From the IMG/VR virus record IMGVR_UViG_3300042334_000377, positions 2,934 to 66,933 of that record: a DNA stretch of 64,000 bases. One strand, written 5' to 3'. The position numbers were made by a program, and so were the translations under genes. Below, piece after piece: positions 1,701 through 56,456 of this stretch. The first letter of the stretch is position 1. Each line of letters begins with the position of its first letter. This DNA comes from a virus. Its lineage: Duplodnaviria; Caudoviricetes. A model generated the notes under the pieces. That model had not been told where the DNA came from. It worked only from the letters and a program-made list of their open reading frames with translations, and ran no database searches.

Positions 1701-1701
1701 T

Positions 1702-2215: not shown

Positions 2216-2228
2216 ATATTATTTCTTT

Positions 2229-3342: not shown

Positions 3343-3343
3343 A

Positions 3344-3592: not shown

Positions 3593-3593
3593 A

Positions 3594-4842: not shown

Positions 4843-4852
4843 ATTTGTTGTT

Positions 4853-4895
4853 TTACATATATATTATCATTCTTTAATCGTATCAAGACTGTAAG
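4853..4895 (-). promoter_or_regulatory. Early promoter-like motif, copy 2
   Basis: CTTACAGTCTTGATACGATTAAAGAATGATAATATATATGTAA. Confidence 0.8.
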
Positions 4896-5019
4896 CAATT
4901 AATTTCTTATTATGCTTGTGTAAGCGGTTGTCTCTGCAATAAGAACAACTACCATTGTTTCTGCAGGATCTATCAAACACTCTTGATTTCCTGTACGCTT
5001 GTTTTACTGTTCTGCTCAT
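4867..5019 (-). CDS. Small basic Cys/His protein (likely start MSRTVK)
   Basis: DRSCRNNGSCSYCRDNRLH; the longer ORF-track start overlaps a tRNA-like gene. Confidence 0.65.
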   Translation of the reverse strand: MSRTVKQAYRKSRVFDRSCRNNGSCSYCRDNRLHKHNKKLIAYSLDTIKE

Positions 5020-5033
5020 AATATTTAATTTAG

Positions 5034-5157
5034 TAGTCAGGACAGGATTCGAACCTGTAAGCTCCCGCACTTCTGCGTTGATCAATTTTTTGTTTAATGT
5101 GAGGATCGCTTAACCTCAGTACAGTTTTTTAGCGTCTACCAATTCCGCCACCTGACT
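5034..5157 (-). tRNA. Leu-type tRNA-like RNA with expanded, non-canonical anticodon region (124 nt)
   Basis: Acceptor AGTCAGG/CCTGACT+A, D arm TGGCGGAATTGGTAGACGC, T arm ACAGG-TTCGAAT-CCTGT; ~70-nt interior with no canonical anticodon arm. Confidence 0.7.
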
Positions 5158-5209
5158 TAGCTTCTATTGACTTTATCAGTGTCAACACTTTACACAGCTT
5201 AGCTATTAG

Positions 5210-5298
5210 GAACTAAAAGGGGAATCGAACCCCTTAACCCGTCGGTTGTGACAATGCCCGGAGACTGAAACAGATCCATTTAGCCCAGCACTTAGTTC
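5210..5298 (-). tRNA. Degenerate tRNA-like RNA (His-like G-1:C73 acceptor; TTGTCAC loop on a poor stem)
   Basis: GAACTAAG/TTTAGTTC acceptor, T arm AGGGG-TTCGATT-CCCCT. Confidence 0.55.
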
Positions 5299-5299
5299 T

Positions 5300-5668
5300 T
5301 TATTAATCCGGGGACCGGTTATTTTCTTTATCCCATATTTCGGTTGCAACCAGCTAGCTAAGCCCGGTATAACTTCACACAACCCCGAGTGATTAACATT
5401 TCGACCGGGGTCACCCCAATCCCATTCACATCCGCTCCCAGGTTAATGCCTGCCCGCTTTATTACCTCGTTAACTTAGGCGCGTTGTTCGTCTCGGATGA
5501 TTTCTTATTCAGCATTACGTACTGTTTCCCACGTTCCAACCTTGGTCTTGCAGGGTTACTGGTTTGTTGATCTTACTATTAACCCTTTTTCTATGTTATC
5601 AACCTAACAGCGAGCATTGGAATTTACACGGCCTCTATACCACTCATGTGAGACAACCGTGTATAGCA
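5300..5668 (-). ncRNA. Putative large structured ncRNA (~370 nt)
   Basis: GC-rich interval with no ORF-track call and at least six complementary helices, including crossing pairings. Confidence 0.65.
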
Positions 5669-5669
5669 A

Positions 5670-5906
5670 TTATACCGTAACAACTTTCTTAAATCTGTAG
5701 AAAGCTAAGATATATTTGTTTAAGAATTTACCTTTAGACGAGGCTTCTCTTAAACCATTCATTACGTGAGTTGGTACATTGAAGTACTCATACTCTCTAC
5801 CGTTTTTAAACAGTACAAATAGTCTTTCGACATTAGGATAGTAAGACACTTCAAAGATAGCGCTACTATCAACCGTTAGTGTTTCCACCAAGTTTACATT
5901 AGTCAT
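5670..5906 (-). CDS. KTSC domain protein
   Basis: VDSSAIFEVSY...LFVLFKNGREYEYFNVP...ASSKGKFLNKYI. Confidence 0.9.
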   Translation of the reverse strand: MTNVNLVETLTVDSSAIFEVSYYPNVERLFVLFKNGREYEYFNVPTHVMNGLREASSKGKFLNKYILAFYRFKKVVTV

Positions 5907-5928
5907 AGTTATTAAATTTAATTGTTAG

Positions 5929-5999
5929 TTGTCTTATAAGGATTCGAACCTAAACTGAATCAGTCAAAGTGATTAGTGCTACCGTTACACCATAAGACA
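5929..5999 (-). tRNA. tRNA-Gln(UUG)
   Basis: Cloverleaf: TGTCTTA/TAAGACA acceptor, AATCA-CTTTGAC-TGATT anticodon arm, TTCGAAT T loop; CCA not encoded. Confidence 0.9.
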
Positions 6000-6004
6000 C
6001 GTGG

Positions 6005-6259
6005 TTAATCTAGCAATACCATATAGGCGTCGCCATTGGCTCGTCTGAACCAATTCATCGCTTTATTAAAGGTTGCATCATACTTATTTAACATAACACA
6101 ACCCATAATATAATCATACATACTTAATTCAGCGGCTGTTAATTCAATACTTTCATGACTAAAAGGGTTCATTACCATTCCGCCATTAGTATATAACATA
6201 CCATTAAACCATTTAGGCAATGGCTGATCTTCTGTTTTATTCTTTCTAAGATCTATCAT
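6005..6259 (-). CDS. Conserved small phage protein
   Basis: NPFS...L...ELSMYDYIMG...WFRRAN..AYMVLLD. Confidence 0.7.
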   Translation of the reverse strand: MIDLRKNKTEDQPLPKWFNGMLYTNGGMVMNPFSHESIELTAAELSMYDYIMGCVMLNKYDATFNKAMNWFRRANGDAYMVLLD

Positions 6260-6666
6260 TATTCTTCAGTATTAGTTATTAATTTACCAAATGATTCTTG
6301 AAATTTATCTAATAATATATCAGATAATTCATCAGTTACAGCGTCAGAATTAAAGTCAATATTTTCTATTTCAATTGTATTGTGGTAGTTAATACTGAAC
6401 TCAGCGCTTGAATAATCATGTATGTCAACATCGCCTCGGTTTATTCTGTTTTCTAGTTCTCTGGTTACACTTTCGCTAAAGTTTTGAAAGTCCATTTCAG
6501 TAATTGGAGTAGCATTTGCATTAGACAAAGCCTCAGCGGTTTCAGTTAATACAGTAGTTCGCAATGAACTTAATAGATTAACAACATCGTCTTTAGAAAA
6601 GATACTTGGATAAGCATCTATAGTTTTTGTAATTTCCTGGTCAAACAGGTTGTTTATTTTATCCAT
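6259..6666 (-). CDS. Acidic hypothetical protein (possible DNA mimic / anti-defence)
   Basis: Strongly D/E-rich, first gene after promoter copy 3. Confidence 0.6.
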   Translation of the reverse strand: MDKINNLFDQEITKTIDAYPSIFSKDDVVNLLSSLRTTVLTETAEALSNANATPITEMDFQNFSESVTRELENRINRGDVDIHDYSSAEFSINYHNTIEIENIDFNSDAVTDELSDILLDKFQESFGKLITNTEE

Positions 6667-6684
6667 TTTATTAAATTTTATTGG

Positions 6685-6727
6685 TTACATTTATATTATC
6701 AATTATTGTTCGTATTCGGACTGTAAG
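6685..6727 (-). promoter_or_regulatory. Early promoter-like motif, copy 3
   Basis: CTTACAGTCCGAATACGAACAATAATTGATAATATAAATGTAA. Confidence 0.8.
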
Positions 6728-6924
6728 ATTCCATTTTCTTCAACAACTTCGCAGAATAAGGTGTATAGTAAACTTTCTATTTGCTGCAATCTATGTAATT
6801 GATGTACGGTTAAAAGCGATCTTTCTATTCTAAAATCCGTATTTAGGTTTTCTTCAATTGTTAATGTTCCTTCAAAGACTGCTAGCTTAATTAAATCTAG
6901 TTCTTTATCGCTTAGTACTTTCAT
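6703..6924 (-). CDS. Hypothetical protein
   Basis: ORF track. Confidence 0.6.
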   Translation of the reverse strand: MKVLSDKELDLIKLAVFEGTLTIEENLNTDFRIERSLLTVHQLHRLQQIESLLYTLFCEVVEENGILQSEYEQ

Positions 6925-7074
6925 ATATTTTTATTTCTAATGCATTGTTAAACACTCGATCGTATGCTTCTGCCATTTTATTATTATCGGCATAGTGTAC
7001 AGTCCTTACTATTTCTCGCATCCACACTTCGAATGCTAATGCTTCTTGATGAGCTAATCTTTCTTTTGTCATAA

Positions 7075-7317
7075 TTAATCTGTTAAAACTATTCTTAATG
7101 ATCCATCTTCGTTTTCGCCAGTAAAATTACCAGTTGATTCATTGTATACTAATACTATATCAAAAGCTTTAGCTACTTTAACGGCTGCAATGCCAATCTC
7201 GCCTTGTAATGTTAATTCGCCGCGTCTAGGATAATACTGTATACTATAGAATACTTCAAACTCTACTTGCTCATTTACATATCTTAATTTTTCTAATAAC
7301 CACATTCTTCTATCCAT
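7075..7317 (-). CDS. Hypothetical protein
   Basis: ORF track; follows promoter copy 4. Confidence 0.65.
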   Translation of the reverse strand: MDRRMWLLEKLRYVNEQVEFEVFYSIQYYPRRGELTLQGEIGIAAVKVAKAFDIVLVYNESTGNFTGENEDGSLRIVLTD

Positions 7318-7337
7318 CTTGTTATATTTTTTATTTG

Positions 7338-7380
7338 TTACATATATATTATCATTTGTTAATCGTATTTTGATTGTAAG
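7338..7380 (-). promoter_or_regulatory. Early promoter-like motif, copy 4
   Basis: CTTACAATCAAAATACGATTAACAAATGATAATATATATGTAA. Confidence 0.8.
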
Positions 7381-7599
7381 CTACTCAACTACTTTAATAA
7401 AGTTACCATCTTTTCCAAACAATAAAGTTAATTCAAACTTATGGTCTAGATATTCTATAATCTCTGATGGGTTGGCAAATTGCATGGCAATAGAGAATTG
7501 ATCAGGTGGTAGGTCTAAACCTTGCTCACGAGCATAAGTGTATAGCAAACTCATATCAAGTTGATTACTATTACGCATTTTAATATACTCTGCTTTCAT
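7381..7599 (-). CDS. Hypothetical protein
   Basis: ORF track, coupled operon. Confidence 0.65.
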   Translation of the reverse strand: MKAEYIKMRNSNQLDMSLLYTYAREQGLDLPPDQFSIAMQFANPSEIIEYLDHKFELTLLFGKDGNFIKVVE

Positions 7600-7790
7600 T
7601 ATTTTTGTTTTAAGGTTAATGCTTTAATCTTTTCGATTGTTTCAGATACAACCATGTCTACATAATCCGCAGTCATCAAAGCATTTTTACCTTGTGCTTC
7701 AACTTCTTTAATATCTTTCTTCCATTCATTTCGAATTGCATTCAATCCTTCGATTACTAAATAACTTTCAAATCCGTTTAATTTTTTCAT
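7599..7790 (-). CDS. Hypothetical protein
   Basis: ORF track, coupled operon. Confidence 0.65.
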   Translation of the reverse strand: MKKLNGFESYLVIEGLNAIRNEWKKDIKEVEAQGKNALMTADYVDMVVSETIEKIKALTLKQK

Positions 7791-7791
7791 A

Positions 7792-8040
7792 CTAATATTT
7801 ATCTTTAATTTCTGTTAATGTTAAGTGATAATGATTCCAATAACCGCTTCTACTGTGAGCTTTCGCTTTTGCACCAAAGGATGATTTCATTTTAGTCTTG
7901 ATTTGTTTATAGTCATTACTATTAAAACTCTTACAAAAGCCATCAATATTCACCGCATTTATACGGTTCGCTTTATTACGTGCTTTCTTTTCTTCAAGAT
8001 ATTGACACGCTTCTTTCATATTATTTGCTATTGTTATCAT
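7792..8040 (-). CDS. Hypothetical protein
   Basis: ORF track, coupled operon. Confidence 0.65.
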   Translation of the reverse strand: MITIANNMKEACQYLEEKKARNKANRINAVNIDGFCKSFNSNDYKQIKTKMKSSFGAKAKAHSRSGYWNHYHLTLTEIKDKY

Positions 8041-8041
8041 A

Positions 8042-8224
8042 TTATTTTATTAAAGTTAAACCTAATTCATTTGCCACATAATTCACATGCTTCGTAGTTG
8101 TTCTTGACCACCAACCCAATACTTTAAGGGTATCGCCATCTCTCCTTGCAACGATTGTAGAGTAACTCCATACGTCATTACCAACCATTCTTAAATTGTC
8201 TTTGTATCTATTGAACTTTCTCAT
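8042..8224 (-). CDS. Conserved small phage protein
   Basis: WSYSTIVA...WSRTTTKHVNY pattern. Confidence 0.7.
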   Translation of the reverse strand: MRKFNRYKDNLRMVGNDVWSYSTIVARRDGDTLKVLGWWSRTTTKHVNYVANELGLTLIK

Positions 8225-8225
8225 A

Positions 8226-8408
8226 TTACTTTTTGATTATGTAAGTTAAACCTTTAAAATTAAACCACTCGCTTGTGCCGTCGGATTCTTTATTAGCATC
8301 GTAGATAAAACCAAAACTTGGTGGTAGATCGCCGATTGAATAAGGTGTGTATAGCAAACCGTTTAATAAGATTTGATTGTACTTTAAGAATTTAATTGAA
8401 TTTGTCAT
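8226..8408 (-). CDS. Hypothetical protein
   Basis: ORF track; follows promoter copy 5. Confidence 0.65.
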   Translation of the reverse strand: MTNSIKFLKYNQILLNGLLYTPYSIGDLPPSFGFIYDANKESDGTSEWFNFKGLTYIIKK

Positions 8409-8424
8409 AGTTAATTTGTTTTAG

Positions 8425-8467
8425 TTACATTTATATTATCAATTTTGAATCGTATTTATATTGTAAA
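8425..8467 (-). promoter_or_regulatory. Early promoter-like motif, copy 5
   Basis: TTTACAATATAAATACGATTCAAAATTGATAATATAAATGTAA. Confidence 0.8.
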
Positions 8468-8474
8468 TACTTTG

Positions 8475-8546
8475 TAGTTAGGGTAGGAATCGAACCTACA
8501 TTGCGGGCGCCTGATCGGCCTGAGTTTACCATTACTCCTCCTAACT
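8475..8546 (-). tRNA. tRNA-like RNA with intact acceptor/D/T arms but irregular anticodon arm
   Basis: AGTTAGG/CCTAACT+A, GAGT-AATGGTAA-ACTC, GTAGG-TTCGATT-CCTAC; interior GGCCGATCAGGCGCCCGCAA. Confidence 0.7.
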
Positions 8547-8553
8547 CCTATTA

Positions 8554-8781
8554 TTAATCTTTATACTTAACATCCGCCATGAATCTTTCAATTACACCGG
8601 CTTCAAAAGCTTCTTGTTCTTTATAGTATTTTGCACGTACTATTCTATCTAATAACCATTCAACAATCACTTCATAATCCGTGTGATGTTTAGTCATACC
8701 GTTTTCTATAGTCGCTTTATAATATGTGTGCTCAGGGAAGTACGGATTTTTGTACTCTATAATTTCATAATCTCCTATCAT
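8554..8781 (-). CDS. Hypothetical protein
   Basis: ORF track. Confidence 0.6.
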   Translation of the reverse strand: MIGDYEIIEYKNPYFPEHTYYKATIENGMTKHHTDYEVIVEWLLDRIVRAKYYKEQEAFEAGVIERFMADVKYKD

Positions 8782-8783
8782 AA

Positions 8784-8951
8784 TTAATCGTTATATATTT
8801 CAAATTCAACATCATCAAAGTCATTAGCGTCCAACACTACTTCTTCACCACAATACATTTCTTCCGCTAATAATCTTGCATCGATTTCATCGTTGGCTTC
8901 AACTTCAATTATCTTACTTAAATACTCGGTTATTTTTACTTTATATATCAT
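8784..8951 (-). CDS. DpnD/PcfM-like small acidic protein (not in ORF track)
   Basis: MIYKVKITEYLVRIIEVEANDEIDARLLAEEMY...VVLDANDFDDVEF. Confidence 0.7.
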   Translation of the reverse strand: MIYKVKITEYLSKIIEVEANDEIDARLLAEEMYCGEEVVLDANDFDDVEFEIYND

Positions 8952-8962
8952 ATTATTATTTG

Positions 8963-9005
8963 TTACATTTATATTATCAATACTTAATCGTATTTAGATT
9001 GTAAA
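8963..9005 (-). promoter_or_regulatory. Early promoter-like motif, copy 6
   Basis: TTTACAATCTAAATACGATTAAGTATTGATAATATAAATGTAA. Confidence 0.8.
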
Positions 9006-9122
9006 TCAATCTTCATCTTCGCCGTCCCAATCGGTAAACTCGCAATGTTCTAAACAATCACCACACAACTCATCATATATATGGTGTCTACCCGCACCAC
9101 AACAATCACTATATTCGTCCAT
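9006..9122 (-). CDS. 38-aa Cys-rich Zn-ribbon microprotein (not in ORF track)
   Basis: MDEYSDCCGAGRHHIYDELCGDCLEHCEFTDWDGEDED. Confidence 0.65.
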   Translation of the reverse strand: MDEYSDCCGAGRHHIYDELCGDCLEHCEFTDWDGEDED

Positions 9123-9126
9123 ACTT

Positions 9127-9435
9127 TTATTTATTTAAATTATTTTTATATTCTCTTTCGTCTCTTAAATTTCTATATTCGAAGTAAGACCATATTGCAG
9201 CGTTAATTCGACCAACTTCACTAGTGCCATCGTGGACTAAGTATGGTTCAACCGCATTGAAATAGTCGGTTAAGTCATAATCAATATCACAATATTGTTC
9301 TTTAAATAACTCTAATTCGTCACCTTGCATAAAGTTTAACCCAACAATCGCATCGTCTTCTTTAACTATTAGTATATAGCGGTCATCGCCATTACACCAC
9401 ACTATTTCTCTACTTTCTATTACTTTATAATCCAT
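9127..9435 (-). CDS. Acidic hypothetical protein
   Basis: ORF track. Confidence 0.6.
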   Translation of the reverse strand: MDYKVIESREIVWCNGDDRYILIVKEDDAIVGLNFMQGDELELFKEQYCDIDYDLTDYFNAVEPYLVHDGTSEVGRINAAIWSYFEYRNLRDEREYKNNLNK

Positions 9436-9583
9436 ATTGTATTTTTTTACTTATTAATATTAGTTTCTTAGGGCCATAGAGGCGTATTTCGCTTGAATTA
9501 AGAACTCTTTTTTTACTTTTAATAATACCACTCTAAAGGCACTTGAATAACGTCTCATATTTACTTGTTTTAGTTTGTTTTTG

Positions 9584-9626
9584 TTACACTTATATTATCA
9601 TTTCACAATCGTATTTTTATTGTAAA
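9584..9626 (-). promoter_or_regulatory. Early promoter-like motif, copy 7
   Basis: TTTACAATAAAAATACGATTGTGAAATGATAATATAAGTGTAA. Confidence 0.8.
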
Positions 9627-9732
9627 GAGGTTGAACTCTATTTGATCGAATTTAAAGAAGTACAGGTATTACAGAGTATCCCTTTGTTTGCAAGCCTTTT
9701 CAACCATTTTACCATCGATTATTGTTATTTTG

Positions 9733-9775
9733 TTACATATATATTATCGTTTTTGATTCGTGTTCATTTTGTAAG
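9733..9775 (-). promoter_or_regulatory. Early promoter-like motif, copy 8
   Basis: CTTACAAAATGAACACGAATCAAAAACGATAATATATATGTAA. Confidence 0.75.
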
Positions 9776-9855
9776 CACTTTTTGAGTGAAAATAGAAAAT
9801 AGTTAACTATAGTGTAGGACGGAGTCTACTCTTTCGACAGTGTTTCAGTGCCAGA

Positions 9856-9898
9856 CTACACATATATTATCAAATTACCGTCGTAATGTTATTGTAAG
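9856..9898 (-). promoter_or_regulatory. Early promoter-like motif, copy 9
   Basis: CTTACAATAACATTACGACGGTAATTTGATAATATATGTGTAG. Confidence 0.75.
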
Positions 9899-9969
9899 GG
9901 GTTTTTAGGTGAATGCTATACGCGTTGCTATACACTTTGTGTAAGGTTCCGATGGAACACTTTGTAAAA

Positions 9970-10018
9970 GTGTGACATTAGCTCATTAAGTTAATAATAT
10001 AGTAGGCTAACGTCGCAC
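9970..10018. promoter_or_regulatory. Inverted-repeat site 2 (12-N25-12)
   Basis: GTGTGACATTAG-N25-CTAACGTCGCAC, extended by AAAA/TTTT. Confidence 0.8.
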
Positions 10019-10024
10019 TTTTTA

Positions 10025-10240
10025 TTATAGGTTTTCTATCTCTTTTTTAACTTCATTCCAATTTATATCCTGACCGTAGCATTCGTATTTACTGCATCCA
10101 TTTTTTTCTTTTAATATCTCATCAATTGCTATTAATGCACATTGTTTGGCTTCATCAGTATCTAAATAGTTTTCAGTTTGATGTGAATATAAATTTACAT
10201 ATCTATAAACTAACTCTTCTGCTTTTTCTTTTGGTGTCAT
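10025..10240 (-). CDS. Hypothetical protein (MTPKEKA type)
   Basis: AKQCALIAIDEIL...WNEVKKEIENL; paralog of 4064-4261. Confidence 0.7.
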   Translation of the reverse strand: MTPKEKAEELVYRYVNLYSHQTENYLDTDEAKQCALIAIDEILKEKNGCSKYECYGQDINWNEVKKEIENL

Positions 10241-10243
10241 ATC

Positions 10244-10456
10244 TTATTTGTTTTTAAATTGTTCGTTGTAATATTGTTTGCCATTTCTTGAATTATAATA
10301 ATACCTATCTATATAAGCATTATCGTAAGCATCAATAATCTGTTGCTTTTCCATTTCTTTGGCTTGTTCAAGAATAGCTCTAATTGCTAATTGATGTCCG
10401 CTTGGAATTAATTGTTCTAATTGCTCTACTGCAAACTCTACTGCTGTTGGTTTCAT
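10244..10456 (-). CDS. Hypothetical protein
   Basis: TAVE...AKEMEKQQIIDAY...QYYN pattern. Confidence 0.7.
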   Translation of the reverse strand: MKPTAVEFAVEQLEQLIPSGHQLAIRAILEQAKEMEKQQIIDAYDNAYIDRYYYNSRNGKQYYNEQFKNK

Positions 10457-10469
10457 AATCTTATTTGTT

Positions 10470-10512
10470 TTACATTATTATTATCATTATTCACTCGTAT
10501 TTAGTTAGTAGA
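10470..10512 (-). promoter_or_regulatory. Early promoter-like motif, copy 10
   Basis: TCTACTAACTAAATACGAGTGAATAATGATAATAATAATGTAA. Confidence 0.75.
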
Positions 10513-10518
10513 AGAGAC

Positions 10519-10869
10519 TTATTCAGCCTCAACTACTTCTAACACTTCAACCGTAGCCAAATGTCTTACATTACTTGGCATATCGGTAGATTGTGACCAA
10601 TATTCTCTTTTAATCCAACAAGGCATAAGATTAAGTTTAGGTAACATCACTTTTAAAACCTCGTCATGATTGTAAGTTATACGTTGATTCTTGTTATTAA
10701 CAAAGGTTATGATTTGATTACGACCTAACCATGACTTTCTTACTACAAAGTTAGCTCTTTCGATTGGTGGATAGATTAAAGCCAAGTCTTCTGGGCTTAA
10801 TTTAGAGATAGCTTCAGCGATTAACTCTTTACTTGATTTTACAACTTCGTTTGTTACTTGATTTTTCAT
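10519..10869 (-). CDS. First gene of the early block, hypothetical
   Basis: ORF track; directly downstream of tandem promoter copies 11 and 12. Confidence 0.7.
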   Translation of the reverse strand: MKNQVTNEVVKSSKELIAEAISKLSPEDLALIYPPIERANFVVRKSWLGRNQIITFVNNKNQRITYNHDEVLKVMLPKLNLMPCWIKREYWSQSTDMPSNVRHLATVEVLEVVEAE

Positions 10870-10898
10870 ATTATTATATTTAATTTGTTATTACTTAG

Positions 10899-10941
10899 TT
10901 ACACTTATATTATCAATTAGACTTCGTATTCTTATTGTAAG
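10899..10941 (-). promoter_or_regulatory. Early promoter-like motif, copy 11
   Basis: CTTACAATAAGAATACGAAGTCTAATTGATAATATAAGTGTAA. Confidence 0.8.
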
Positions 10942-10969
10942 AACTTCTTAACCATTTGGTGCTTGTTGC

Positions 10970-11012
10970 TTACATATATATTATCAAATACCATCCGTAC
11001 TCAGACTGTAGG
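10970..11012 (-). promoter_or_regulatory. Early promoter-like motif, copy 12
   Basis: CCTACAGTCTGAGTACGGATGGTATTTGATAATATATATGTAA. Confidence 0.75.
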
Positions 11013-44510: not shown

Positions 44511-46109
44511 ATGTCAGCTACTATAGAAATAAAATATTATAATTCTTTTTGGTTAAAGAAAATGGCTACTATCACTGCTGTTAGTGCTGTCAATCCTAAT
44601 TCTCCAACACCAGCTCCAAATACGGCAGCTTCTGTTGGAGCATCAACTATTGGACAAAGTACTTTAACTATAACGAATGCTGCAGCGGCTAGCGTTGGAA
44701 TAGGACAATCTATAAGTTATACTATATCAAGTGTTATATATACTTACACTATAATATTAAAGACTTTAAGTGGTGCAAATACAATATTAACGCTATCAAG
44801 CCCTATAACCGGAGCAAATGTGCCGGGTGGTACTATATTAACATTCGGTGAGATAGATAATAATGCGTGGTTACCTAGTCGTTATGAGTCTACACCAGAT
44901 AGAGATTGGTATATAGAAGAATCAAGGATTAGAGGTGGCTATGAAAACACATCGGTTGATTTAGGTGTTAAAGCTTACATAGTAGAAGATTCCCCTCAAA
45001 GAGAAAAGTTGCCAAGTACTTTAATATATTCTGGTGTATTTAATTCAAGAACAGGTGTTAATAATACCAATCAGTTCTCTGTAGCTGATGATATTACAAG
45101 AACAGTTGATCCTGCGCAAGGTAGTATACAAAAGCTTTATGCAGAAGATACCAACTTAATAATATTCCAAGAATTAAAAGTAAGTAGAGCTTTAATAGAT
45201 AAAGATGCAATATACTCTGCTGAAGGGCAGCCAATGACAACATCTGGATCTATGGTTATAGGCCAAGTTCAATCTTATGCTGGTAATTATGGAATAGGAT
45301 CTCATCCTGAAAGCTTTGCGGTATATGGATATAGAAAATACTTTGTTGACAATTATCAAAATGTAGTATTACGTTTATCTCAGGATGGTATAACCGAAAT
45401 ATCAGCTTATGGAATGCTTGATTATTTTAGAGACCAACTTTCAAATACTAGTTTGGTTAATGGGTCCATTTATGGAATGTGGGACATGCACAATAAACAA
45501 TACGTATTATCAATACAACCAACATCCGGTGAAAGCAATACTTTATCATTTGATGAAGATTCTAATGGATGGACAAGTTTCTTTAGTTTTATTCCTAACG
45601 GAGGATTAAGTTTAAGAAATAACTTTTATACAGTATATTCTGGTAAAATATGGAAACATTATATTACTTCTGTACCAAAAGCTACTTTTTATGATACCAA
45701 CTATGAATCAAATGTTACTATAGTATTTAATCCATATGTATCGGTTTCTAAATCTTTCCTAACCATAAATTATGAAGGGACACAAAACTGGCGTTTATCT
45801 AGTCTTGAAACGGAAACGGATACTTCGGTTATAATAAAAGAATATTACTTCCCTTCAACATTAGCGGGGTTAGAAGATCAACTGTTTGAAAATAAATTTA
45901 AGAAAAAAGAAAATAAATACTTTGCTAATATTTTAAATATAAGTGCGGTACAAGAAGGTGAAATTCAATGGGGCCAGTCAATATCTGGTATTAAAGGGTT
46001 TTATGCAACTGCAACTTTTGCATGTTTAAATGGAAGCGTGGATTCTATTACAAATCAGAAAGCAGAATTATATGCAGTGTCTGCAGAATACGTAGAATCA
46101 TCATATTAA
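44511..46109 (+). CDS. Tail stabilisation protein, C-terminal part
   Basis: GSIQKL, YGIGSHPESFA, LRLSQDGITEIS, GWTSFFSF. Confidence 0.75.
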   Translation: MSATIEIKYYNSFWLKKMATITAVSAVNPNSPTPAPNTAASVGASTIGQSTLTITNAAAASVGIGQSISYTISSVIYTYTIILKTLSGANTILTLSSPITGANVPGGTILTFGEIDNNAWLPSRYESTPDRDWYIEESRIRGGYENTSVDLGVKAYIVEDSPQREKLPSTLIYSGVFNSRTGVNNTNQFSVADDITRTVDPAQGSIQKLYAEDTNLIIFQELKVSRALIDKDAIYSAEGQPMTTSGSMVIGQVQSYAGNYGIGSHPESFAVYGYRKYFVDNYQNVVLRLSQDGITEISAYGMLDYFRDQLSNTSLVNGSIYGMWDMHNKQYVLSIQPTSGESNTLSFDEDSNGWTSFFSFIPNGGLSLRNNFYTVYSGKIWKHYITSVPKATFYDTNYESNVTIVFNPYVSVSKSFLTINYEGTQNWRLSSLETETDTSVIIKEYYFPSTLAGLEDQLFENKFKKKENKYFANILNISAVQEGEIQWGQSISGIKGFYATATFACLNGSVDSITNQKAELYAVSAEYVESSY

Positions 46110-48824: not shown

Positions 48825-51800
48825 ATGGAAGAATACATCAATGATGCCGGTGATTTATATACAATTGAAGAAATAAATCAAGTAGCAGAAGAAAATAATA
48901 CAACTTTTGAAGATATTATTAAAAAGAATAAATTATCTCCAAATAAGAAAAAAGAAACGGTAACTGAGGAAGTAAAAGTTGAAGAGCCGGGAAAGCCAAA
49001 AACTGTTGTAAAAAAGGATGCAGTTGCAACAGCAAAAAGTACGGCATCCAAATCGGCGAAACCTTCTTCGGTATCACCCGTTAACCCATTTGGTAAACCT
49101 AAAACAATTGATTTACTTGGATTAGAAAAGTTTAAGAAAGCACCCGCTCCTGTAAGTGTTAAAAAGCCAGCGCGAAATTTACAGAATATATCGGATTATC
49201 AAGAAAAGATGAAAAAAGAAGAGGAAGGTAGTTTTTCAAATTACCTTAAAAATTCTTTTGACGCAGGAATTTCCGCTGTAACAGAATCTTTATATAGAGT
49301 GCCTGAATATGCTTATGATATATCTGCAACTATAATGAATCCTATTGGGCGTGCAATTGAGGATGTAACGGGCATTGATGTTGGAGAAGATACCTCTTCT
49401 GAAAAAATTATGAAAGCATGGGGTATTAGGAATGTACCCGCTGATATTCTTGCAAAAAGAGTAAAAGAATCAAATAAAATTATACAGGATTATAATACTA
49501 AAGCAGGAGGCGACCCATTAACAGCAATAGAAAAAGGTAATTATTTAGGAGCAGCTAAGATGGTTGCGGGCGGAACTACACAATCTGTTCCAATGATGGC
49601 GGCTGCAATGTTAAGTGGTGGAAGCCCTCAAGCTCTTGCCGGTATCGCTACTTCAACAGCGGTGTCCAAAGCTCAGCAATTAAAAATTGAGCAGCCAGAG
49701 ATGGACGTTCAAACAAGAACAACAAATGCTGCCGTATCCGGTTTATTAGAAGGTTACCTAGGAAATATGTTTACAGGAGCGTCTGGAGCTGTGATAAAAA
49801 AAATAATCACCGATAAAGGAGTAAAAGCAGGATCTAAAATTGTTTCCAATGGATTAATAAGCTCCCTTGAAAAAGCAATTGAAAAAAACCCTATGATAGG
49901 AGTTTTAGGAGAGGTTGCTGAAGAGAGTAGTGTTGAATTTGGTAATCAATTAAATGATATAAATTCTGGTATTAGAAAAGAATTAGATACTAGATCAATT
50001 ATCAATGCTGGTATCGTTGCAACCGGAATGGCTGGAACAAACACTGTTCCTATATACGCAGCGAAAGGTTATATGAAAGCAAAAGATTATAGCCAAGTAA
50101 AAGCTGTTAATAAGGAAATTAACAATTTAAGTGCTCAATTATCTAATCCATATATAAGCGACACTGATAAACAAATAATTTCATCCCGAGTTACAAGGCT
50201 TGTAGATGAAAATAAAGCTATTGTAGGTGCTAATCTAGAAAAAATAGATGCTTTACCTAATAATATAAAAAGTGAAATAGTTACTATAAATACTGATTTA
50301 GATGATTTAAAAAGTAAGTATTTAGATATTATTGATAATCCTGAATTGCCTGTTGATGTACAACAAGCAATGACTAAAGAACTAGAATTACAAGCAAAAG
50401 ACTTACAAAGTAGAAAATCAAGTATAATTGAAGGTAATTATGTTTACGAAGACTTTAGAAGATTACCACAACCTGAGCAAGACAGAATTAAAGTATTGGC
50501 TAATGAAACATTAGTTGCTAATGCAGAGTTAAATAATGATCCAAAGACTAGCTTTAATGATGATGAAATAAATAGAGAAGCAATCAATGTTTATAATGCT
50601 GAACTACGTGCTGCTGATTTTGTTGCGGATGTAGAAAAAACTAAAGCTGCTACAAAAGCAATTGGGCTGAGTGAGGATATTGATATGCCAACTTTAAACA
50701 CTGCAAATGATGTAATAACTTATTTGTCAGATAATACAGATCTTGACCCAGATACTATAGAAAACGTAGCTGACTCTTATGGTGCATTTATACCATTGGC
50801 AAATGGCAAAGAAGCATTGATTATAAATAAAGAAGCCGCTGACATGGATCAAGTAGTCACCACTGGTCAGCATGAATTCCTTCATAAACTTATATATAAA
50901 GCAGTAAAGGACAACCCAGAATTACAGAAAAAAATAGGGACAGATTTATATAATCACATTGAAAATTATATAGGTACGGAAGAATTCAATAATACTGAAT
51001 TTAAAAATAGATATGATACTTATAAAACTGATTTTGAAAATACTAAATTAGAATTAGATAATAAAGTAGCAAAAGCAAAAAGTTATTTTGAAAGTGGAGC
51101 TATATCTCAAGAAAGATATACCCAAGCTGTATCCGATGCTGAATCAGCTATATTTAAGGCTGAAGGTAAATATTTAGAAGAAACTTTACCATTATTATCT
51201 GAATCATTAACTAAAGGAGATGTTAAATACAATGAAACATTCTTTACTAAGATTGGTGATATATTACGTAGAATATTCCAAAAATATGGATTAAGTAAAG
51301 TAAAATTTAATACAGGTAAAGATGTATTTGATTTCGTAAGAGATTATAATAAGAGTTTTGAGAAAGGACAATTTACAAAAGCATTCAAGGCATTAGCAAA
51401 AGAAGGAGCTTATAAAGGATCTATTGCAAAAGGCAATGCTCCAGTTAGGGCTGCTGTTAAACCTGAAGTAAAGAAAAGTCAGGGATTATCACAAGTTGAA
51501 ACTTTAAAGAATCAACTAAAAGAAATACAAGATAATGAATTTGATTATGATCCTGATGATTTTGATCAACAAGTTGCTAATTTACAAGGTAAAATTAAAA
51601 AGGCAATTGAAAAGGAAAAAACCACTCCTACTGTTGAAACTAAAAAAGAGAAAGAAATCTCTGAAGAAGACGATGTAAAAGAAATTATAAAAAACGAAAG
51701 AGGTTCCGTATCTTCTGATAGAGTTCAACAAATATATAATGAAAAAGGATTAAATGGAGCAGCTGAAATTATAAAACTATTTAAACCAATTACAAATAGA

Positions 51801-54800
51801 ATAGTTGATAAGCGTAGAGATGCCCCAGGATTTGACAAAGAATTATTAACTGATGAAATAGAAACAGGTGTTGGCGGAATTTTAGATTTAATAAAAAAAT
51901 ATAATGCAAAAGCAGGTATTCCATTAGCCGCTTATATTAATAAGTATTTACCCGTTAGAGCAATTGCTACTTCAAGAAGAATATTAGACCAACAGTTTAA
52001 AAAAGATGTAACTGAAGAGAAAGGCTTAATGGCTGAAGAAACAGTTATAGAGACAAAAGAAAAGCCAAAATATAAGAATGTATTAGAATCAAAAGTTTTT
52101 GAGCCAGAGACGCTTAAAACAATCAATGATAAGATATTAACCGTTGTTAGAACTCTAAAATCAAAGATTGATGAGCCAATATCATTAAATAGAACAGTTA
52201 CACCTATAATTGCTGAGATTAGAGATGAAATTGGTAAGCTTGTTGATATTGATGTTAAGACAGCAATGGGCGGCAAAAAAGATAATCAACTTAAAAATTG
52301 GTTATTAAAGAATAAAAGATATATTCTTGAGAACATGACTACGACCTGGTTAATGGGTAAAGATGGTCAAGGAGGAATGCCTATTGCTATTCAAAAACAA
52401 ATTGATGGTAGATTTGTAAATTATCCTGAATGGGTTGGCAAAAAAATAGACCGAGAAAAAACTTCAACTGATAATGCCGGTAGAACTTCTGGAGCGGAAT
52501 TAGTTAGAAGATTGCCTAATGTAGTAAATAACATTTCTGATGCAGACTACCTTGCACAAGTTTTAGCCGCAGATGGGAATCCATTAAGAGGTAGGAAAGA
52601 ATCTTTAGCAAAAGCTATTGCTGAAGAAACATCGTTTGATATTATCAATGACGATTTATCAAAAGAAGGGGTAATATACGATGCCCTAGAAACCAACCAA
52701 AAAAGATTAGGTGTTGAGCAATTAGACAATATTGCTGTTGAGGTAAACAAACAAATAGAAAGAGGTAATGTTAAATTCTCTAAAAAGCTAATTAAAGGAT
52801 TTGAAATATCTAAAGACAAATTAGGTAAAGATATACTTAATGCAAAAACAATTGAAGAAGAAGTTAATGCAATTAACAATTGGATTGCAAGCGACGGTAG
52901 ATCTTTAAGAACATTAGCTTGGGAAGTTGGTAAAGGATTAAAACAATTTACAACTAACAGAGGATTATTTGAAAATATAGTTTTACCTATAATTAAAACC
53001 TACTCTAAGTTTGAAGGTATAATAGGTACTGACTCTTATAGAATAGGTACCGCTCAAAAAGGTGAATCAATTTATTTTGGTGATACTAAAGTTCCTTTAT
53101 GGGCGGACACAACCGCTATAAAAAACAATTGGAAAGGTTTTGTAAATACTATTGATAATGAAGCTATTAAAGCAACAAATAATTTAATTGATATAGTTAA
53201 GTATTTTAAAGATAACGATTATACTAATGAAGATTTTGAATCATACCTTGCCTTATTAAGATGGGATCAAAGAAGTTTAATTAGAAAAGTATCTAAAGCA
53301 GGATTAGCTGTAATGGATATGAAAAAATACCAAAGATCTCACTTAGAACATAATGTTCCAGTACAAAATATAGTAGAGAAAACAATTGAATTTTTTGATG
53401 GCAAAGTAACAGAAAAAGAATTAAGAGATTTCATTGGAGAAGCTCAAGTTAATCTTGTGCCAGATGAATTAAATAAATATTTGCCCGCTTATAAAGAAGG
53501 TGAGAATAGAATGCATGCTCCTGAAGTTGTATTGTACTTACAAGACTTAATGGATAAGGGGCAAACTATATTAAATTTAGAAAGCGAGTATGGATCAAAA
53601 GCAAACTTTAATGCTCTTGTTAAATTAGCAAAATCCGGTGTCAATTCTAAAGAGTCTTTACAAAACATATATAATAATGATGCGGTAACAAAATCTTTAA
53701 TTTCATTTTCTAAACCGGCAAAAGGTATTTCTGTTTTTGATTTTGATGATACTGTTGGTATAACTAAAAGTAATGTGCTATACACAATGCCGGATGGGAC
53801 AAAAGGTAAATTAAATGCTGAAGAGTTTGCAAAAGACGGCGCAAGACTATTGGAAGAAGGCGCTCAATTTGATTTTTCTGAATTTAGTAAGGTTACTAAT
53901 GGTAAGCCAGGCCCTATGGTTGAAAAAATGAAGAAAATGATTGGTAAGTTTGGCCCAGATAATTTCTTTATACTTACTGCAAGACCTGCGAATTCAGCTG
54001 GTCCTATTCATGGATTTTTATCTTCAATAGGTATAGACATACCATTAGAAAATATAACTGGATTAGGTAATAGTACAGCTCAAGCAAAAGCTGATTGGAT
54101 GACAGCGAAAGCAACGGAAGGTTATAACGACTTTTATTTTGCTGATGATGCAATTCAAAATGTAACAGCGGTTAAAGATGCATTAGATGTTCTTGACGTT
54201 AAATCAAAAATACAACAAGCAAGAATTAAATTTAGTAAAACTATATCTCCAGAATTCAATAAGATAATTGAAGAGAATACTGGCATGGAAGACTATAAAG
54301 TGTTCTCAGATATTGTTGCTAGAAGAAGAGGGGTAGATAAAAATAAATTTGATATTTATGTTCCGCCATCTGCTGCTGACTTTGAATTATTATTGTATAA
54401 ATTTATAGGTAAAGGTAAACGCGGGGAGGAGCAAAAGCAATTCTTTAATGATGCTTTATTAAAACCATATGCAAATGGTAATGACTTAATGGATGCGGCT
54501 AGGCAATCAATTAAGAATGACTATAAAGCATTGACAGATCAATTCCCCAATATTAGGAAGAAAATAGAAAAGCTAACTCCAGATGGAGACTTTACATATG
54601 ATCAAGCAATACGTGTTGCAATGTGGACAGAAGAAGGTGTTGAGATACCTGGTATATCACAAAGAGACCAAAAGAAATTAACTGAGCTTGTAAATAATGA
54701 TCCAGAATTAAATACTTTTAAAGATGGATTAATTGTTACAGGTAGACAAGGTAAAGGTTGGGTTGCTCCTACTGAATTTTGGGATGCAAGTACGATTATA

Positions 54801-56456
54801 TCTGACTTACATAACTTAACAGAAGGAGAAGGTAGAAAGAAATTCCTTGCTGAATTTATTGACAATACCCAAGAAATGTTTGGTAAATGGGAGAACGGTA
54901 AACTTGTTGGTCCTAATATGAACAAAGTAGAAGCGGTATACGGAACAAATGTAAGAGAGGCAATCGAAGATGTATTATACAGAATGACAACTGGTAAAAA
55001 CAGAAGTCAAGGTAGCGACAAAGAAACATCTGCATGGAGTAATTGGATAAATGGTTCTACAGGAACTATTATGTTCTTGAATACAAGATCTGCTGCATTA
55101 CAATTAATTGGAGCAGTCAATTTCTTAAACTTAAGAGATAACAATCCAATTGCAGCTGGTAAAGCATTTGCTAATCAAAAACAATATTGGGAAGATTTTG
55201 CTCTTATATGGAATTCTGATAAGATGAAAGAAAGACGTGGCGGTTTAAAAGAAGATGTTGCGGCTGCTGAAATTGCTAATGCTGCTGCCGGTAGTAAAAA
55301 TAAAGTCAATGCTGTTATATCATACTTATTAAAAATAGGTTACACACCCACACAATTAGCGGATAGTTTTGCTATCGCTTCAGGTGGATCACCGTTTTAC
55401 AGGAATAGAATTAAAAGCTATTTAAAAGAAGGTTTAACTCAAGAAGAGGCAGAGGACGCAGCATGGAGTGACTTTACTAAAGTATCTGATGAAACACAAC
55501 AGTCAGGTGACCCAAGAGATATATCAAAACAACAAGCAAGTCCTGCAGGGAGATTATTATTAACATTCCAAAACACGGCAATGCAACAATCTCGTATTGT
55601 TAAGAAGTCTTTCTTAGATCTTAAAAACGGTAGGGGTGATGCTAAAACACATATTGCAAAAATAACTTATTACTTAGCAATACAGAATATAATGTTCGCG
55701 GTATTACAACAAGGATTGTTTGCAGTATTATTTAGCGGAGACGATAAAGAAGATGAAGAGGCTAAAAAGAAGAAAGCGAAAGATACAGAAAAGAAATTGT
55801 ATGATATTGCTGATGGAGTATTAGATACAATATTAAGAGGTACAGGATTTTTGGGGGGTATTACAGCTACATTGAAAAATGTTTACATGAAATACTTAGA
55901 GGAGGAGCCTAAAGACTTTAAAGCAGACTATGCTAAAGTTGTATTAGAAGGCGCTAATATATCACCTCCAATCGGATCTAAACTTAGAAAACTATATTCA
56001 GGATTCCAGCAAACTAAATTCGAAAGAGATCTTATAAAAGAAAGAGGATGGGGAGTAACACAAGATGGTAGAGTTCACTTAGGACCTTTATATGGAGTAA
56101 CTGGAAAACTTGTTGAAGCGACTACAAACTTACCAGCGGATCGTTTAGTTAATAAGATTGAAAATGTATCACAAGCATTTAATTCAAAAAATACAGCTTT
56201 ACAAAGAGTATTAGTAGGAATTGGATTTAATCCTTATAGCGTTGGAATTGAAGAATCAGAAGCTGATCAGGAAATAAGAACTAAAGCCAAAGAAGTAAGA
56301 GCTGAAGAAGGCAAAATTAAATCTAGAGAAACAAGGTTACGTACTAAAGATTCAATTAGAGCTTTACCTATTGAAGAAAGAATAAAATTAAAACGCGAAG
56401 CTGCTTTAAAAAGAAGAGAAGAAAAGCTAAAAAAGCGTAAAAGAAAAATGGGTTGA
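48825..56456 (+). CDS. Giant ejection polyprotein: zincin, sigma-region-2-like and HAD domains
   Basis: HEFLH at aa 683; sigma-like aa ~980-1053; HAD DFDDT/ILTAR/FADD at aa ~1630-1800; last gene of the virion block. Confidence 0.75.
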   Translation: MEEYINDAGDLYTIEEINQVAEENNTTFEDIIKKNKLSPNKKKETVTEEVKVEEPGKPKTVVKKDAVATAKSTASKSAKPSSVSPVNPFGKPKTIDLLGLEKFKKAPAPVSVKKPARNLQNISDYQEKMKKEEEGSFSNYLKNSFDAGISAVTESLYRVPEYAYDISATIMNPIGRAIEDVTGIDVGEDTSSEKIMKAWGIRNVPADILAKRVKESNKIIQDYNTKAGGDPLTAIEKGNYLGAAKMVAGGTTQSVPMMAAAMLSGGSPQALAGIATSTAVSKAQQLKIEQPEMDVQTRTTNAAVSGLLEGYLGNMFTGASGAVIKKIITDKGVKAGSKIVSNGLISSLEKAIEKNPMIGVLGEVAEESSVEFGNQLNDINSGIRKELDTRSIINAGIVATGMAGTNTVPIYAAKGYMKAKDYSQVKAVNKEINNLSAQLSNPYISDTDKQIISSRVTRLVDENKAIVGANLEKIDALPNNIKSEIVTINTDLDDLKSKYLDIIDNPELPVDVQQAMTKELELQAKDLQSRKSSIIEGNYVYEDFRRLPQPEQDRIKVLANETLVANAELNNDPKTSFNDDEINREAINVYNAELRAADFVADVEKTKAATKAIGLSEDIDMPTLNTANDVITYLSDNTDLDPDTIENVADSYGAFIPLANGKEALIINKEAADMDQVVTTGQHEFLHKLIYKAVKDNPELQKKIGTDLYNHIENYIGTEEFNNTEFKNRYDTYKTDFENTKLELDNKVAKAKSYFESGAISQERYTQAVSDAESAIFKAEGKYLEETLPLLSESLTKGDVKYNETFFTKIGDILRRIFQKYGLSKVKFNTGKDVFDFVRDYNKSFEKGQFTKAFKALAKEGAYKGSIAKGNAPVRAAVKPEVKKSQGLSQVETLKNQLKEIQDNEFDYDPDDFDQQVANLQGKIKKAIEKEKTTPTVETKKEKEISEEDDVKEIIKNERGSVSSDRVQQIYNEKGLNGAAEIIKLFKPITNRIVDKRRDAPGFDKELLTDEIETGVGGILDLIKKYNAKAGIPLAAYINKYLPVRAIATSRRILDQQFKKDVTEEKGLMAEETVIETKEKPKYKNVLESKVFEPETLKTINDKILTVVRTLKSKIDEPISLNRTVTPIIAEIRDEIGKLVDIDVKTAMGGKKDNQLKNWLLKNKRYILENMTTTWLMGKDGQGGMPIAIQKQIDGRFVNYPEWVGKKIDREKTSTDNAGRTSGAELVRRLPNVVNNISDADYLAQVLAADGNPLRGRKESLAKAIAEETSFDIINDDLSKEGVIYDALETNQKRLGVEQLDNIAVEVNKQIERGNVKFSKKLIKGFEISKDKLGKDILNAKTIEEEVNAINNWIASDGRSLRTLAWEVGKGLKQFTTNRGLFENIVLPIIKTYSKFEGIIGTDSYRIGTAQKGESIYFGDTKVPLWADTTAIKNNWKGFVNTIDNEAIKATNNLIDIVKYFKDNDYTNEDFESYLALLRWDQRSLIRKVSKAGLAVMDMKKYQRSHLEHNVPVQNIVEKTIEFFDGKVTEKELRDFIGEAQVNLVPDELNKYLPAYKEGENRMHAPEVVLYLQDLMDKGQTILNLESEYGSKANFNALVKLAKSGVNSKESLQNIYNNDAVTKSLISFSKPAKGISVFDFDDTVGITKSNVLYTMPDGTKGKLNAEEFAKDGARLLEEGAQFDFSEFSKVTNGKPGPMVEKMKKMIGKFGPDNFFILTARPANSAGPIHGFLSSIGIDIPLENITGLGNSTAQAKADWMTAKATEGYNDFYFADDAIQNVTAVKDALDVLDVKSKIQQARIKFSKTISPEFNKIIEENTGMEDYKVFSDIVARRRGVDKNKFDIYVPPSAADFELLLYKFIGKGKRGEEQKQFFNDALLKPYANGNDLMDAARQSIKNDYKALTDQFPNIRKKIEKLTPDGDFTYDQAIRVAMWTEEGVEIPGISQRDQKKLTELVNNDPELNTFKDGLIVTGRQGKGWVAPTEFWDASTIISDLHNLTEGEGRKKFLAEFIDNTQEMFGKWENGKLVGPNMNKVEAVYGTNVREAIEDVLYRMTTGKNRSQGSDKETSAWSNWINGSTGTIMFLNTRSAALQLIGAVNFLNLRDNNPIAAGKAFANQKQYWEDFALIWNSDKMKERRGGLKEDVAAAEIANAAAGSKNKVNAVISYLLKIGYTPTQLADSFAIASGGSPFYRNRIKSYLKEGLTQEEAEDAAWSDFTKVSDETQQSGDPRDISKQQASPAGRLLLTFQNTAMQQSRIVKKSFLDLKNGRGDAKTHIAKITYYLAIQNIMFAVLQQGLFAVLFSGDDKEDEEAKKKKAKDTEKKLYDIADGVLDTILRGTGFLGGITATLKNVYMKYLEEEPKDFKADYAKVVLEGANISPPIGSKLRKLYSGFQQTKFERDLIKERGWGVTQDGRVHLGPLYGVTGKLVEATTNLPADRLVNKIENVSQAFNSKNTALQRVLVGIGFNPYSVGIEESEADQEIRTKAKEVRAEEGKIKSRETRLRTKDSIRALPIEERIKLKREAALKRREEKLKKRKRKMG

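Follow-up and report, generated by a model that had tools for sequence, protein, structure and literature searches.

A predicted sigma2-like domain inside a giant late protein of a crassvirus relative

A two-domain module in the giant protein

The DNA analysed here (the window, 64,000 nucleotides) comprises positions 2934-66933 of the viral record G000 (66,933 bp), i.e. an almost complete phage genome. Its plus-strand structural block ends with an open reading frame (ORF) for a giant late protein, P0001, in which a sigma70 region-2-like domain had been noticed from the sequence and interpreted as a virion-injected sigma factor that redirects host RNA polymerase (RNAP) to an early-promoter motif (hereafter the original prediction). 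This domain, D1, was re-examined together with the conserved domain D2 beside it (Table 1), and D1 is predicted to share the fold of domain 2 (sigma2) of sigma70-family factors. The 66 residues that had been quoted for the domain are found unchanged in the giant ORF, at aa 982-1047 and not over aa ~980-1053 as first given; nucleotides 51760-51985, named as their location, do span the peptide but are 2 out of frame, with many stops when read from 51760.

The giant protein, whole or in pieces, matched no family in Pfam, PHROGs or NCBIfam, and phmmer and profile searches against the PDB sequences returned no matching chain, gp66 of phage phi14:2 included. Homologues are numerous (at least 1169 clusters at 90% identity, E ≤ 1e-3; 438 representatives at 50% identity; 80 loci on viral contigs), they are mostly 2000-3300 aa long, and the module lies inside giant proteins. 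A search for stand-alone D1-D2 proteins of 209-667 aa gave 47 candidates at E ≤ 1e-5, of which 22 are on contigs below 3 kb and 6 on contigs of unstated size; those inspected look like fragments of giant proteins. The acidic linker in front of D1 has low occupancy and low conservation among the homologues, and the first residues of the structural model, which belong to it, have a low predicted local distance difference test score (pLDDT).

Within the D1-D2 segment conservation is highest in D2, where 35 columns are invariant over 59 sequences, among them DID, NMTTT, AGxTxG and RRxP. Modelled alone with AlphaFold2, it reached a pLDDT of 86 and a predicted template modelling score of 0.83. The fold search with VIA-align gave a best Z of 4.1 and no sigma row, Foldseek against PDB and BFVD returned nothing at E ≤ 0.001, no PDB profile matched, and the best score in the ESM Atlas was 0.76. 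D2 is a candidate for a new fold with enzyme-like invariant polar residues. The possibility that D1 and D2 together form a whole sigma factor (sigma2-sigma3-sigma4) was rejected, because the confident D2 model had no fold match at all. D2 matches neither sigma3 or sigma4 nor any known fold, so the two-domain module, of which D1 forms the front part, is probably not a whole sigma. An R-S-E ADP-ribosyltransferase was also considered for D2, from invariants of the R...TTT...RE type and by analogy to T4 Alt, an injected modifier of host RNAP according to the text of the polyvalent-protein survey (PMC5512222). It was dropped, as the D2 model consists mainly of helices beside three short strands, and ADP-ribosyltransferases were absent from the D2 fold lists.

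All structural evidence for D1 comes from predicted models. The AlphaFold2 model of aa 940-1316, built with a 65-sequence alignment, had an overall pLDDT of 77.4. The D1+D2 model was compared by VIA-align with 48,161 PDB representatives, Foldseek not being used as a filter, and at least 27 of the best 50 rows were sigma-factor entries, all of them over model residues ~21-119 (aa ~960-1058). In a second look with VIA-align at the top 990 chains of Foldseek, sigma chains made up 48 of the 50 rows. The best match for D1 was E. coli sigma70 (6ca0_F; Z 8.9, root mean square deviation (rmsd) 2.8, 90 residues aligned), with model residues 22-116 lying on sigma70 110-447, a span that corresponds to regions 1.2 and 2. 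Further matches were Staphylococcus aureus SigB (8x6g_H; Z 8.0, rmsd 2.6, 86 aligned), pro-sigmaK (8vjl_B; Z 7.5), a chain of the T4 late-transcription complex (7d7d_F; Z 7.3, rmsd 3.1, 90 aligned), sigma32 (Z 7.1), region 1.2/2 of RpoS (Z 7.1) and 1sig (Z 6.5, rmsd 2.3).

Methods that start from sequence point in the same direction. In the language-model based ESM Atlas, 12 of the 30 clusters nearest to D1 belong to the Sigma70_r2 set (score 0.96). An alignment by hhalign of the D1 family with the phage's own free sigma family placed aa 983-1049 on sigma 37-113 (score 22.3, P 0.014) and thereby recovered the register of regions 2.1-2.4 that the original prediction had drawn, albeit at a probability of 3.1%. 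One D1 type matched Sigma70_ECF at 13.7 bits (cut-off 21.1; E 0.057, profile positions 28-96), and the divergent types look more sigma- or ECF-like by eye, e.g. KFDPSKNxSLYGYIN and KWDGRGSLYGFINGRIAKRILDAL. Conserved over 11 D1 types are mainly the hydrophobic core and E1006, D1010, K1025, L1034, an aromatic residue at 1037 and R1045, the last position being basic in 9 of the 11. By the hhalign register the conserved positions map to the DLIQEG-like helix and to the helix of region 2.3/2.4, and the positions equivalent to the sigma70 tryptophan dyad W433/W434 are K/Y, A/Q, G/R or S/R, so the dyad is not kept; this residue mapping follows the weak hhalign alignment. The conserved positions would be enough for the fold and perhaps for a minimal docking or melting surface, but a domain that determines an invariant 43-bp motif would be expected to keep more.

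Compared with sigma2 of the sigma70 family (PF04542; sigma70, SigB, pro-sigmaK), the predicted helices of D1 follow the same topology for ~90 residues (Z 7.5-8.9, rmsd 2.6-3.3), and a DxIxxG-like helix and an L-x-x-aromatic one stand in the same register. It differs in being invisible to the Pfam and NCBIfam models, in lying deep inside a 2543-aa protein, in lacking a following sigma3/sigma4 match and a conserved tryptophan dyad, and in evolving far faster than its neighbour domain. We consider it quite probable that D1 is a sigma2 fold and a homologue of sigma70-family domain 2, homology being what we infer beyond the predicted fold. The domain claimed in the original prediction stands at the level of fold, by VIA-align, the ESM Atlas and the hhalign register, but lies below significance in HMMER. 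Taken together, the data suggest a sigma2 domain in a new context.

The early motif, the free sigma factor and the variability of D1

A separate sigma70-family factor is encoded on the minus strand at the start of the window. The original prediction had taken this ORF for a true sigma, and rightly so: it matches PF04542 (E 8.9e-6, 25.9 bits, cut-off 24) and, as the full-length protein of 255 aa, TIGR02937 (53.7 bits, cut-off 42.9), in both cases above the cut-off. The early motif, TTACA-N6-ATACGA-N8-TGATAATATA-N2-TGTAA, occurs 11 times in the window at up to 3 mismatches, with 0 copies expected. Twelve early promoters carrying this 43-bp motif had been proposed; eleven were matched and are strongly non-random, but the one at 10470 has diverged too far for a match. 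A further copy was seen on the minus strand at G000 320-361, 2.6 kb before the window start and downstream of the free sigma gene, where it faces the replication genes across the record ends. Other copies precede a start codon by 10-30 nt. For the copy at 1658-1699 the distance to the next ORF start downstream (1325) is ~330 nt, and an unannotated ORF or a small RNA may lie in between.

The motif can be read as containing a sigma70-type extended -10 element, TGnTAATAT (T-12, A-11, T-7), the other blocks not being at the canonical -35 distance. The motif had been called a non-host one, which is weaker than stated, given this element and the findings for the crAss-like phage phi14:2: according to bioRxiv 10.1101/2020.03.07.982082, tripartite promoters with sigma70-like -35 and -10 blocks are read by host RNAP, being rifampicin-sensitive and transcribed in vitro by the E. 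coli sigma70 holoenzyme, and the gp66-dependent early transcripts, which have no common motif, are rifampicin-resistant.

The motif core, ATACGA-N8-(T/C)GATAATATA, recurs in all five related phage records, with 15, 12, 1, 8 and 4 matches at up to 2 mismatches, compared to 0-2 in reversed-pattern controls; the record with the single match is 79% complete. In these five records D1 is 16-24% and D2 57-68% identical to the window, and the free sigma is present in each of them at 54-97% identity. G001 combines an unchanged motif and a 97% identical free sigma with a D1 at 19%. Domain and motif had been expected to co-occur across phages; instead, the core is kept in all five records despite the divergence of D1. 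That motif core and free sigma stay nearly unchanged across very different D1 types argues against D1 as a motif-specific reader, and from these comparisons D1 is probably not the domain that reads the 43-bp motif sequence-specifically. On the other hand, the free sigma gene lies behind a same-strand motif copy, so that some primer is needed if the free sigma reads the motif, and this is one argument for an injected factor that survives.

A small variation within the motif was also seen. It reads CGATAATATA in G004 and G005 (the records of loci L080 and L075) and mostly TGATAATATA in the window, G001 and G002, a few copies of G002 and one of the window also having C at that position. This near-systematic change in G004 and G005 falls on the 'TG' of the extended -10-like element.

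Over 2080 sequence pairs the mean identity was 44% for D1 and 65% for D2, and D1 can be as low as 14-24% identical where D2 keeps 57-72%. The alignment of loci L001-L080 resolves about nine discrete D1 sequence types. The sigma-like helix pattern is present in every D1 type examined, even at 14-24% identity, and none of the 29 relatives aligned from the 80 loci lacks D1.

Other parts of the giant protein and the genome around it

Outside the module, the giant protein carries an HExxH motif N-terminal to D1, although no peptidase hidden Markov model (HMM) of Pfam or PHROGs matched the protein. A putative HAD phosphatase at 53685-54400 (+) is suggested by the order of the motifs DFDDT, ILTARP and FYFADD. 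The original prediction had assigned DFDDT to a HAD domain, and the motif is indeed there and is not of the crAss type, but Pfam has no HAD family in aa 1621-1858 at E ≤ 10. At the end of D2 the string ERGNVKFSK (52758-52784, +) is nearly invariant in its R, G, N, K and S, and the family consensus has KFSK-like strings again behind the HAD-like region, a pattern consistent with the idea, put forward originally, of cleavage sites at domain borders. The C-terminal ~480 residues have a conservation near that of D2 (65% versus 68% mean column identity), with ~90 invariant columns and a hydrophobic stretch; the region aa 1960-2440 had no match in PDB or PHROGs.

A crAss-type DFDxD was not found in any genome frame open for more than 150 codons, which agrees with the earlier statement that there is no catalytic DxDxD context of an RNAP. 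The pattern D[FYLIVM]DxD is matched only by DLDPD and DYDPD, which lie in acidic linkers of this protein. With neither DFDxD nor a PDB sequence match to gp66, a hidden crAss-type RNAP was rejected.

The virion genes form a plus-strand block from 11.4 to 56.5 kb, which also includes tail proteins. The homologue of the crassvirus tail muzzle is encoded three genes upstream of the giant ORF on the same strand, and between the two a 156-aa ORF (46120-46590, +) belongs to short tail fibre families (phrog_12032, E 2e-25). The minus strand holds small early-type genes, the complete sigma70-family factor and the replication genes RNR, MazG and primase-helicase. The plus-strand intergenic regions, inspected by eye for a late-promoter motif, contain AT-rich TATA-like strings and nothing convincingly shared. 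The first 30 nt of the record (G000 1-30) recur at 66616-66645 (window 63683-63712), 318 nt before the record end, and this suggests a terminal direct repeat of ~318 bp or a circular assembly, the comparison covering the first 30 nt. As host we infer a member of the Bacteroidota, presumably of the marine Flavobacteriia. Two metatranscriptome runs each hold 0.06 of the words (contigs only) and were not used as evidence for expression or habitat.

Table 1 Features of the giant late gene, the structural block and the early region (window coordinates)
Feature	Position (strand)	Basis or remark
Large terminase	within plus-strand block	phrog_6681, E 3.5e-170
Portal	within plus-strand block	phrog_6547, E 1.1e-154
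Virion structural protein	within plus-strand block	phrog_13704
Crassvirus tail muzzle homologue	44511..46109 (+)	PF25729 crAss_MUZ_C, E 2.3e-9, 38 bits (cut-off 27); phrog_14478
Giant late-operon ORF P0001, 2543 aa	48825..56456 (+)	last gene of the plus-strand structural block
HEFLH (HExxH) motif, aa 683-687	50871..50885 (+)	H, E and H nearly invariant in the family
Acidic low-complexity linker before D1, aa 882-959	51468..51701 (+)	net charge -6 over aa 882-958
D1, sigma70-family domain-2-like (regions 1.2 and 2.1-2.4, predicted), aa ~960-1056	51702..51992 (+)	AlphaFold2 model residues 21-117, pLDDT ~78-88
Peptide quoted in the original prediction, aa 982-1047	51768..51965 (+)	exact string match
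Charged D1-D2 linker, aa 1057-1092	51993..52100 (+)	pLDDT 37-56 at model residues 111-140
D2, conserved domain, always adjoining D1, aa ~1093-1316	52101..52772 (+)	59-sequence alignment
DFDDT, HAD-motif-I-like, aa 1639-1643	53739..53753 (+)	motif; T at position 5, so not crAss DFDxD
C-terminal conserved region, aa 1960-2440	54702..56144 (+)	35 sequences, 65% mean column identity
Free sigma70-family factor, N-terminal 179 of 255 aa	2..538 (-)	remainder before the window start
Eleven copies of the early motif	1658..11011 (-)	1658, 4853, 6685, 7338, 8425, 8963, 9584, 9733, 9856, 10899, 10970

Possible roles of the module in the takeover of host transcription

A phage without a polymerase of its own depends on the RNAP of its host. 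The module studied here is encoded where crassviruses have the genes for their virion cargo and virion RNAP. In the reading that we favour, with a probability of about 0.38, the giant protein would be packaged in the virion and ejected together with the DNA, D1 would dock on the beta' clamp helices of the host core RNAP and thus capture or redirect the enzyme at the moment of entry, and D2 would carry the conserved activity of the module. Packaging and ejection are suggested by the position of the gene after the muzzle homologue, the size and multi-domain build of the protein, the nearly invariant HExxH and the K-F-S-K-like strings at the D2 border. A docking of D1 on RNAP is what the predicted complex would point to: with residues 150-420 of beta' of Flavobacterium johnsoniae (RPOC_FLAJ1), D1 scored 0.41 (runs 0.40-0.43), compared to 0.00 for the best of 3 controls, with a partner pLDDT of at least 74 and three runs that agreed in at least 89% of the contacts. 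This support is weak. In the calibration, 7 of 80 solved complexes passed at 0.60 or under, and of 110 mismatched pairs 2 passed, both within that score range. The modelling of D1 with the beta' clamp, which had been proposed as a check, thus yielded a weak pass, with a stand-in host.

The favoured reading has parallels in known systems. The virion RNAPs of N4 and of crAss-like phages (phi14:2 gp66) are likewise giant proteins, encoded in the crAss-like phages at the end of the virion block, downstream of a muzzle gene, and the proposed logic is alike, in that transcription machinery would be delivered with the DNA. Unlike gp66, the giant protein has no DFDxD and would deliver a specificity or docking domain instead of a polymerase. 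If host RNAP is used in place of a delivered polymerase, early transcription should be rifampicin-sensitive, unlike the resistant gp66-dependent transcription of phi14:2. The chain 7d7d_F among the fold matches is, we presume, T4 gp55. Like D1, gp55 is phage-encoded and essentially a sigma2-like domain, and it works with host core RNAP; it is a small free protein made during infection, whereas D1 is part of a giant protein encoded in the virion module. The polyvalent proteins of phages and conjugative elements are, as far as the text of PMC5512222 describes them, also giant and multi-domain, with an HExxH that may release effector domains delivered with DNA. None of their named domain families (including LPD) was found in the giant protein with the HMMs of Pfam and PHROGs.

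Several observations weigh against the favoured reading. PF04542 had no match at E ≤ 10 in the whole giant protein, in aa 961-1080 or in aa 882-1316, it matched 0 of 30 members of the D1 family in HMMER, and in a six-frame search of the genome it matched the free sigma alone and not D1. A PDB profile search with D1 gave 8 weak matches with no sigma among them, and the hhalign probability against the free sigma is low, as given above. With the D1+D2 model, Foldseek returned nothing from the PDB at E ≤ 0.001; in its weak rows, 11 of the 48 listed are chains of sigma-containing entries (E 0.28-1.2). The Z-scores of D1 (6.5-8.9) are inside the range flagged as reachable by helical bundles, and unrelated helical proteins in the VIA-align rows reached 6.3-6.5, so the case for a sigma fold rests on enrichment and coverage and not on a score gap. 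Pfam models of Sigma70_r3 and Sigma70_r4 matched nowhere in the 2543 aa at E ≤ 10, where aa 1-880 and 1317-2543 were covered at the level of sequence alone. Furthermore, D1 is the fastest-evolving and least conserved folded part of the module, with a highly variable surface. In some phage pairs D2 is 80-90% identical and D1 falls to 18%; D1 thus behaves as a swappable cassette, which is odd for a domain that grips nearly invariant clamp helices. The weak pass of the D1-beta' complex may be a memory of solved sigma/beta' complexes, and the beta' fragment is that of a stand-in host. Finally, the searches run found no proteomic evidence of packaging, and tblastn and megablast against 50,697 GenBank phage records found no cultured relative.

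A full model along the lines of the original prediction would go further. In it a zincin would free D1-D2 for injection, D1 would melt TGnTAATAT and D2 read the upstream blocks, and host core RNAP would be sent to 13 motif promoters, bootstrapping the free sigma, which in turn would drive later genes. We regard this as unlikely. It would fit the predicted sigma2 fold of D1, the extended -10 element in the motif and the position of the free sigma gene with its need for a primer. The motif also seems to lack the TTTG/TAnnTTTG pattern of Bacteroidota, the conservation of D2 comes close to that of the motif, and no RNAP motif is present where crassviruses have their virion RNAP; sigma2-only phage factors do exist, as the T4 late-complex chain among the fold matches illustrates. 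What speaks against it is the motif itself, whose core is nearly unchanged in five of five records with so different a D1, and the near-identical free sigma of G001 beside a D1 at 19%. In addition, the conserved D1 positions are mostly buried hydrophobics without equivalents of W433/W434, D2 has no sigma4-like or known DNA-binding fold match, the phi14:2 promoters show that host RNAP can read a tripartite sigma70-like arrangement, and packaging is deduced from gene position. Of an injected sigma that redirects host RNAP to the motif, the sigma2-like domain and the separate complete sigma are thus borne out, but no sigma3 or sigma4 was matched beside domain 2, and D1 does not co-vary with the motif. 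A fast, cassette-like evolution would fit a host-specific arms race between proteins better than the reading of an invariant motif. D1, an isolated sigma2 fold with no sigma4 match, might mimic a sigma without forming a holoenzyme, either as a decoy or competitor that keeps host sigma off the clamp helices (host shut-off) or, like PhyR, as a titrator of a host anti-sigma or of some other protein that binds sigma. Sigma-like domains are known as mimics, for instance in PhyR. PhyR is a cellular response regulator that keeps sigma2 and sigma4; compared by description only, it resembles D1 as a sigma-derived domain outside a sigma factor that serves as a binding mimic, and it differs from D1, which has no sigma4 match and sits in a giant phage protein. 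The weak D1-beta' pass cannot separate a decoy from a functional sigma, and we hold this candidate reading to be improbable.

It is also conceivable, though doubtful, that D1 has no role in transcription at all and is a helical-bundle spacer or packing domain, its likeness to sigma2 being convergence or the functionless relic of an ancient capture. A similarity to sigma at HMMER level was indeed not found, the Z-scores lie within the range flagged for helical bundles, only core hydrophobics are conserved, and no folded part of the module is less conserved than D1. A generic bundle, on the other hand, accounts poorly for the sigma chains that take up 48 of the 50 rows in the second look and at least 27 of 50 in the unbiased search, with ~90 of ~97 residues covered, for language-model neighbours that independently include the Sigma70_r2 set, or for hhalign returning the correct region-2 register. 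Nor does it readily explain a sigma-like helix pattern that persists in every D1 type examined at 14-24% identity, in a domain kept in all 29 aligned relatives.

In full-text searches of the literature, limited to main texts, no paper came up that describes a sigma packaged in a virion or injected from it, or that places a sigma domain in a polyvalent protein or in the cargo of a crassvirus; the phrase matches were to PhyR sigma-like domains and to reovirus sigma proteins. The survey of polyvalent proteins by Iyer et al. 2017 (PMC5512222) does not use the word 'sigma' in its main text. A broader scenario, in which a widespread group of marine crassvirus relatives of ~65 kb swapped an injected virion RNAP for an injected, protease-released D1-D2 module (D2 having a new fold) that directs host core RNAP as the first transcriptase and so starts the 13 motif promoters and the phage's own sigma, appears unlikely at present.

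Three known ways for a phage to seize the transcription of its host are an injected polymerase (N4, crAss-like and phiKZ-like phages), an injected modifier of RNAP (T4 Alt) and sigma or anti-sigma factors made after entry. If the favoured reading is true, a particle-borne, sigma-derived RNAP-docking domain would be a fourth route, and it would explain how a crassvirus relative without a polymerase starts its programme; if D1 is an injected sigma, it would be the first sigma factor delivered by a virion. D2, strongly conserved and confidently modelled without a fold match, is a target in its own right. Given the abundance of the module, with its at least 1169 clusters and 438 representatives, any function would apply to a large group of uncultured marine phages.

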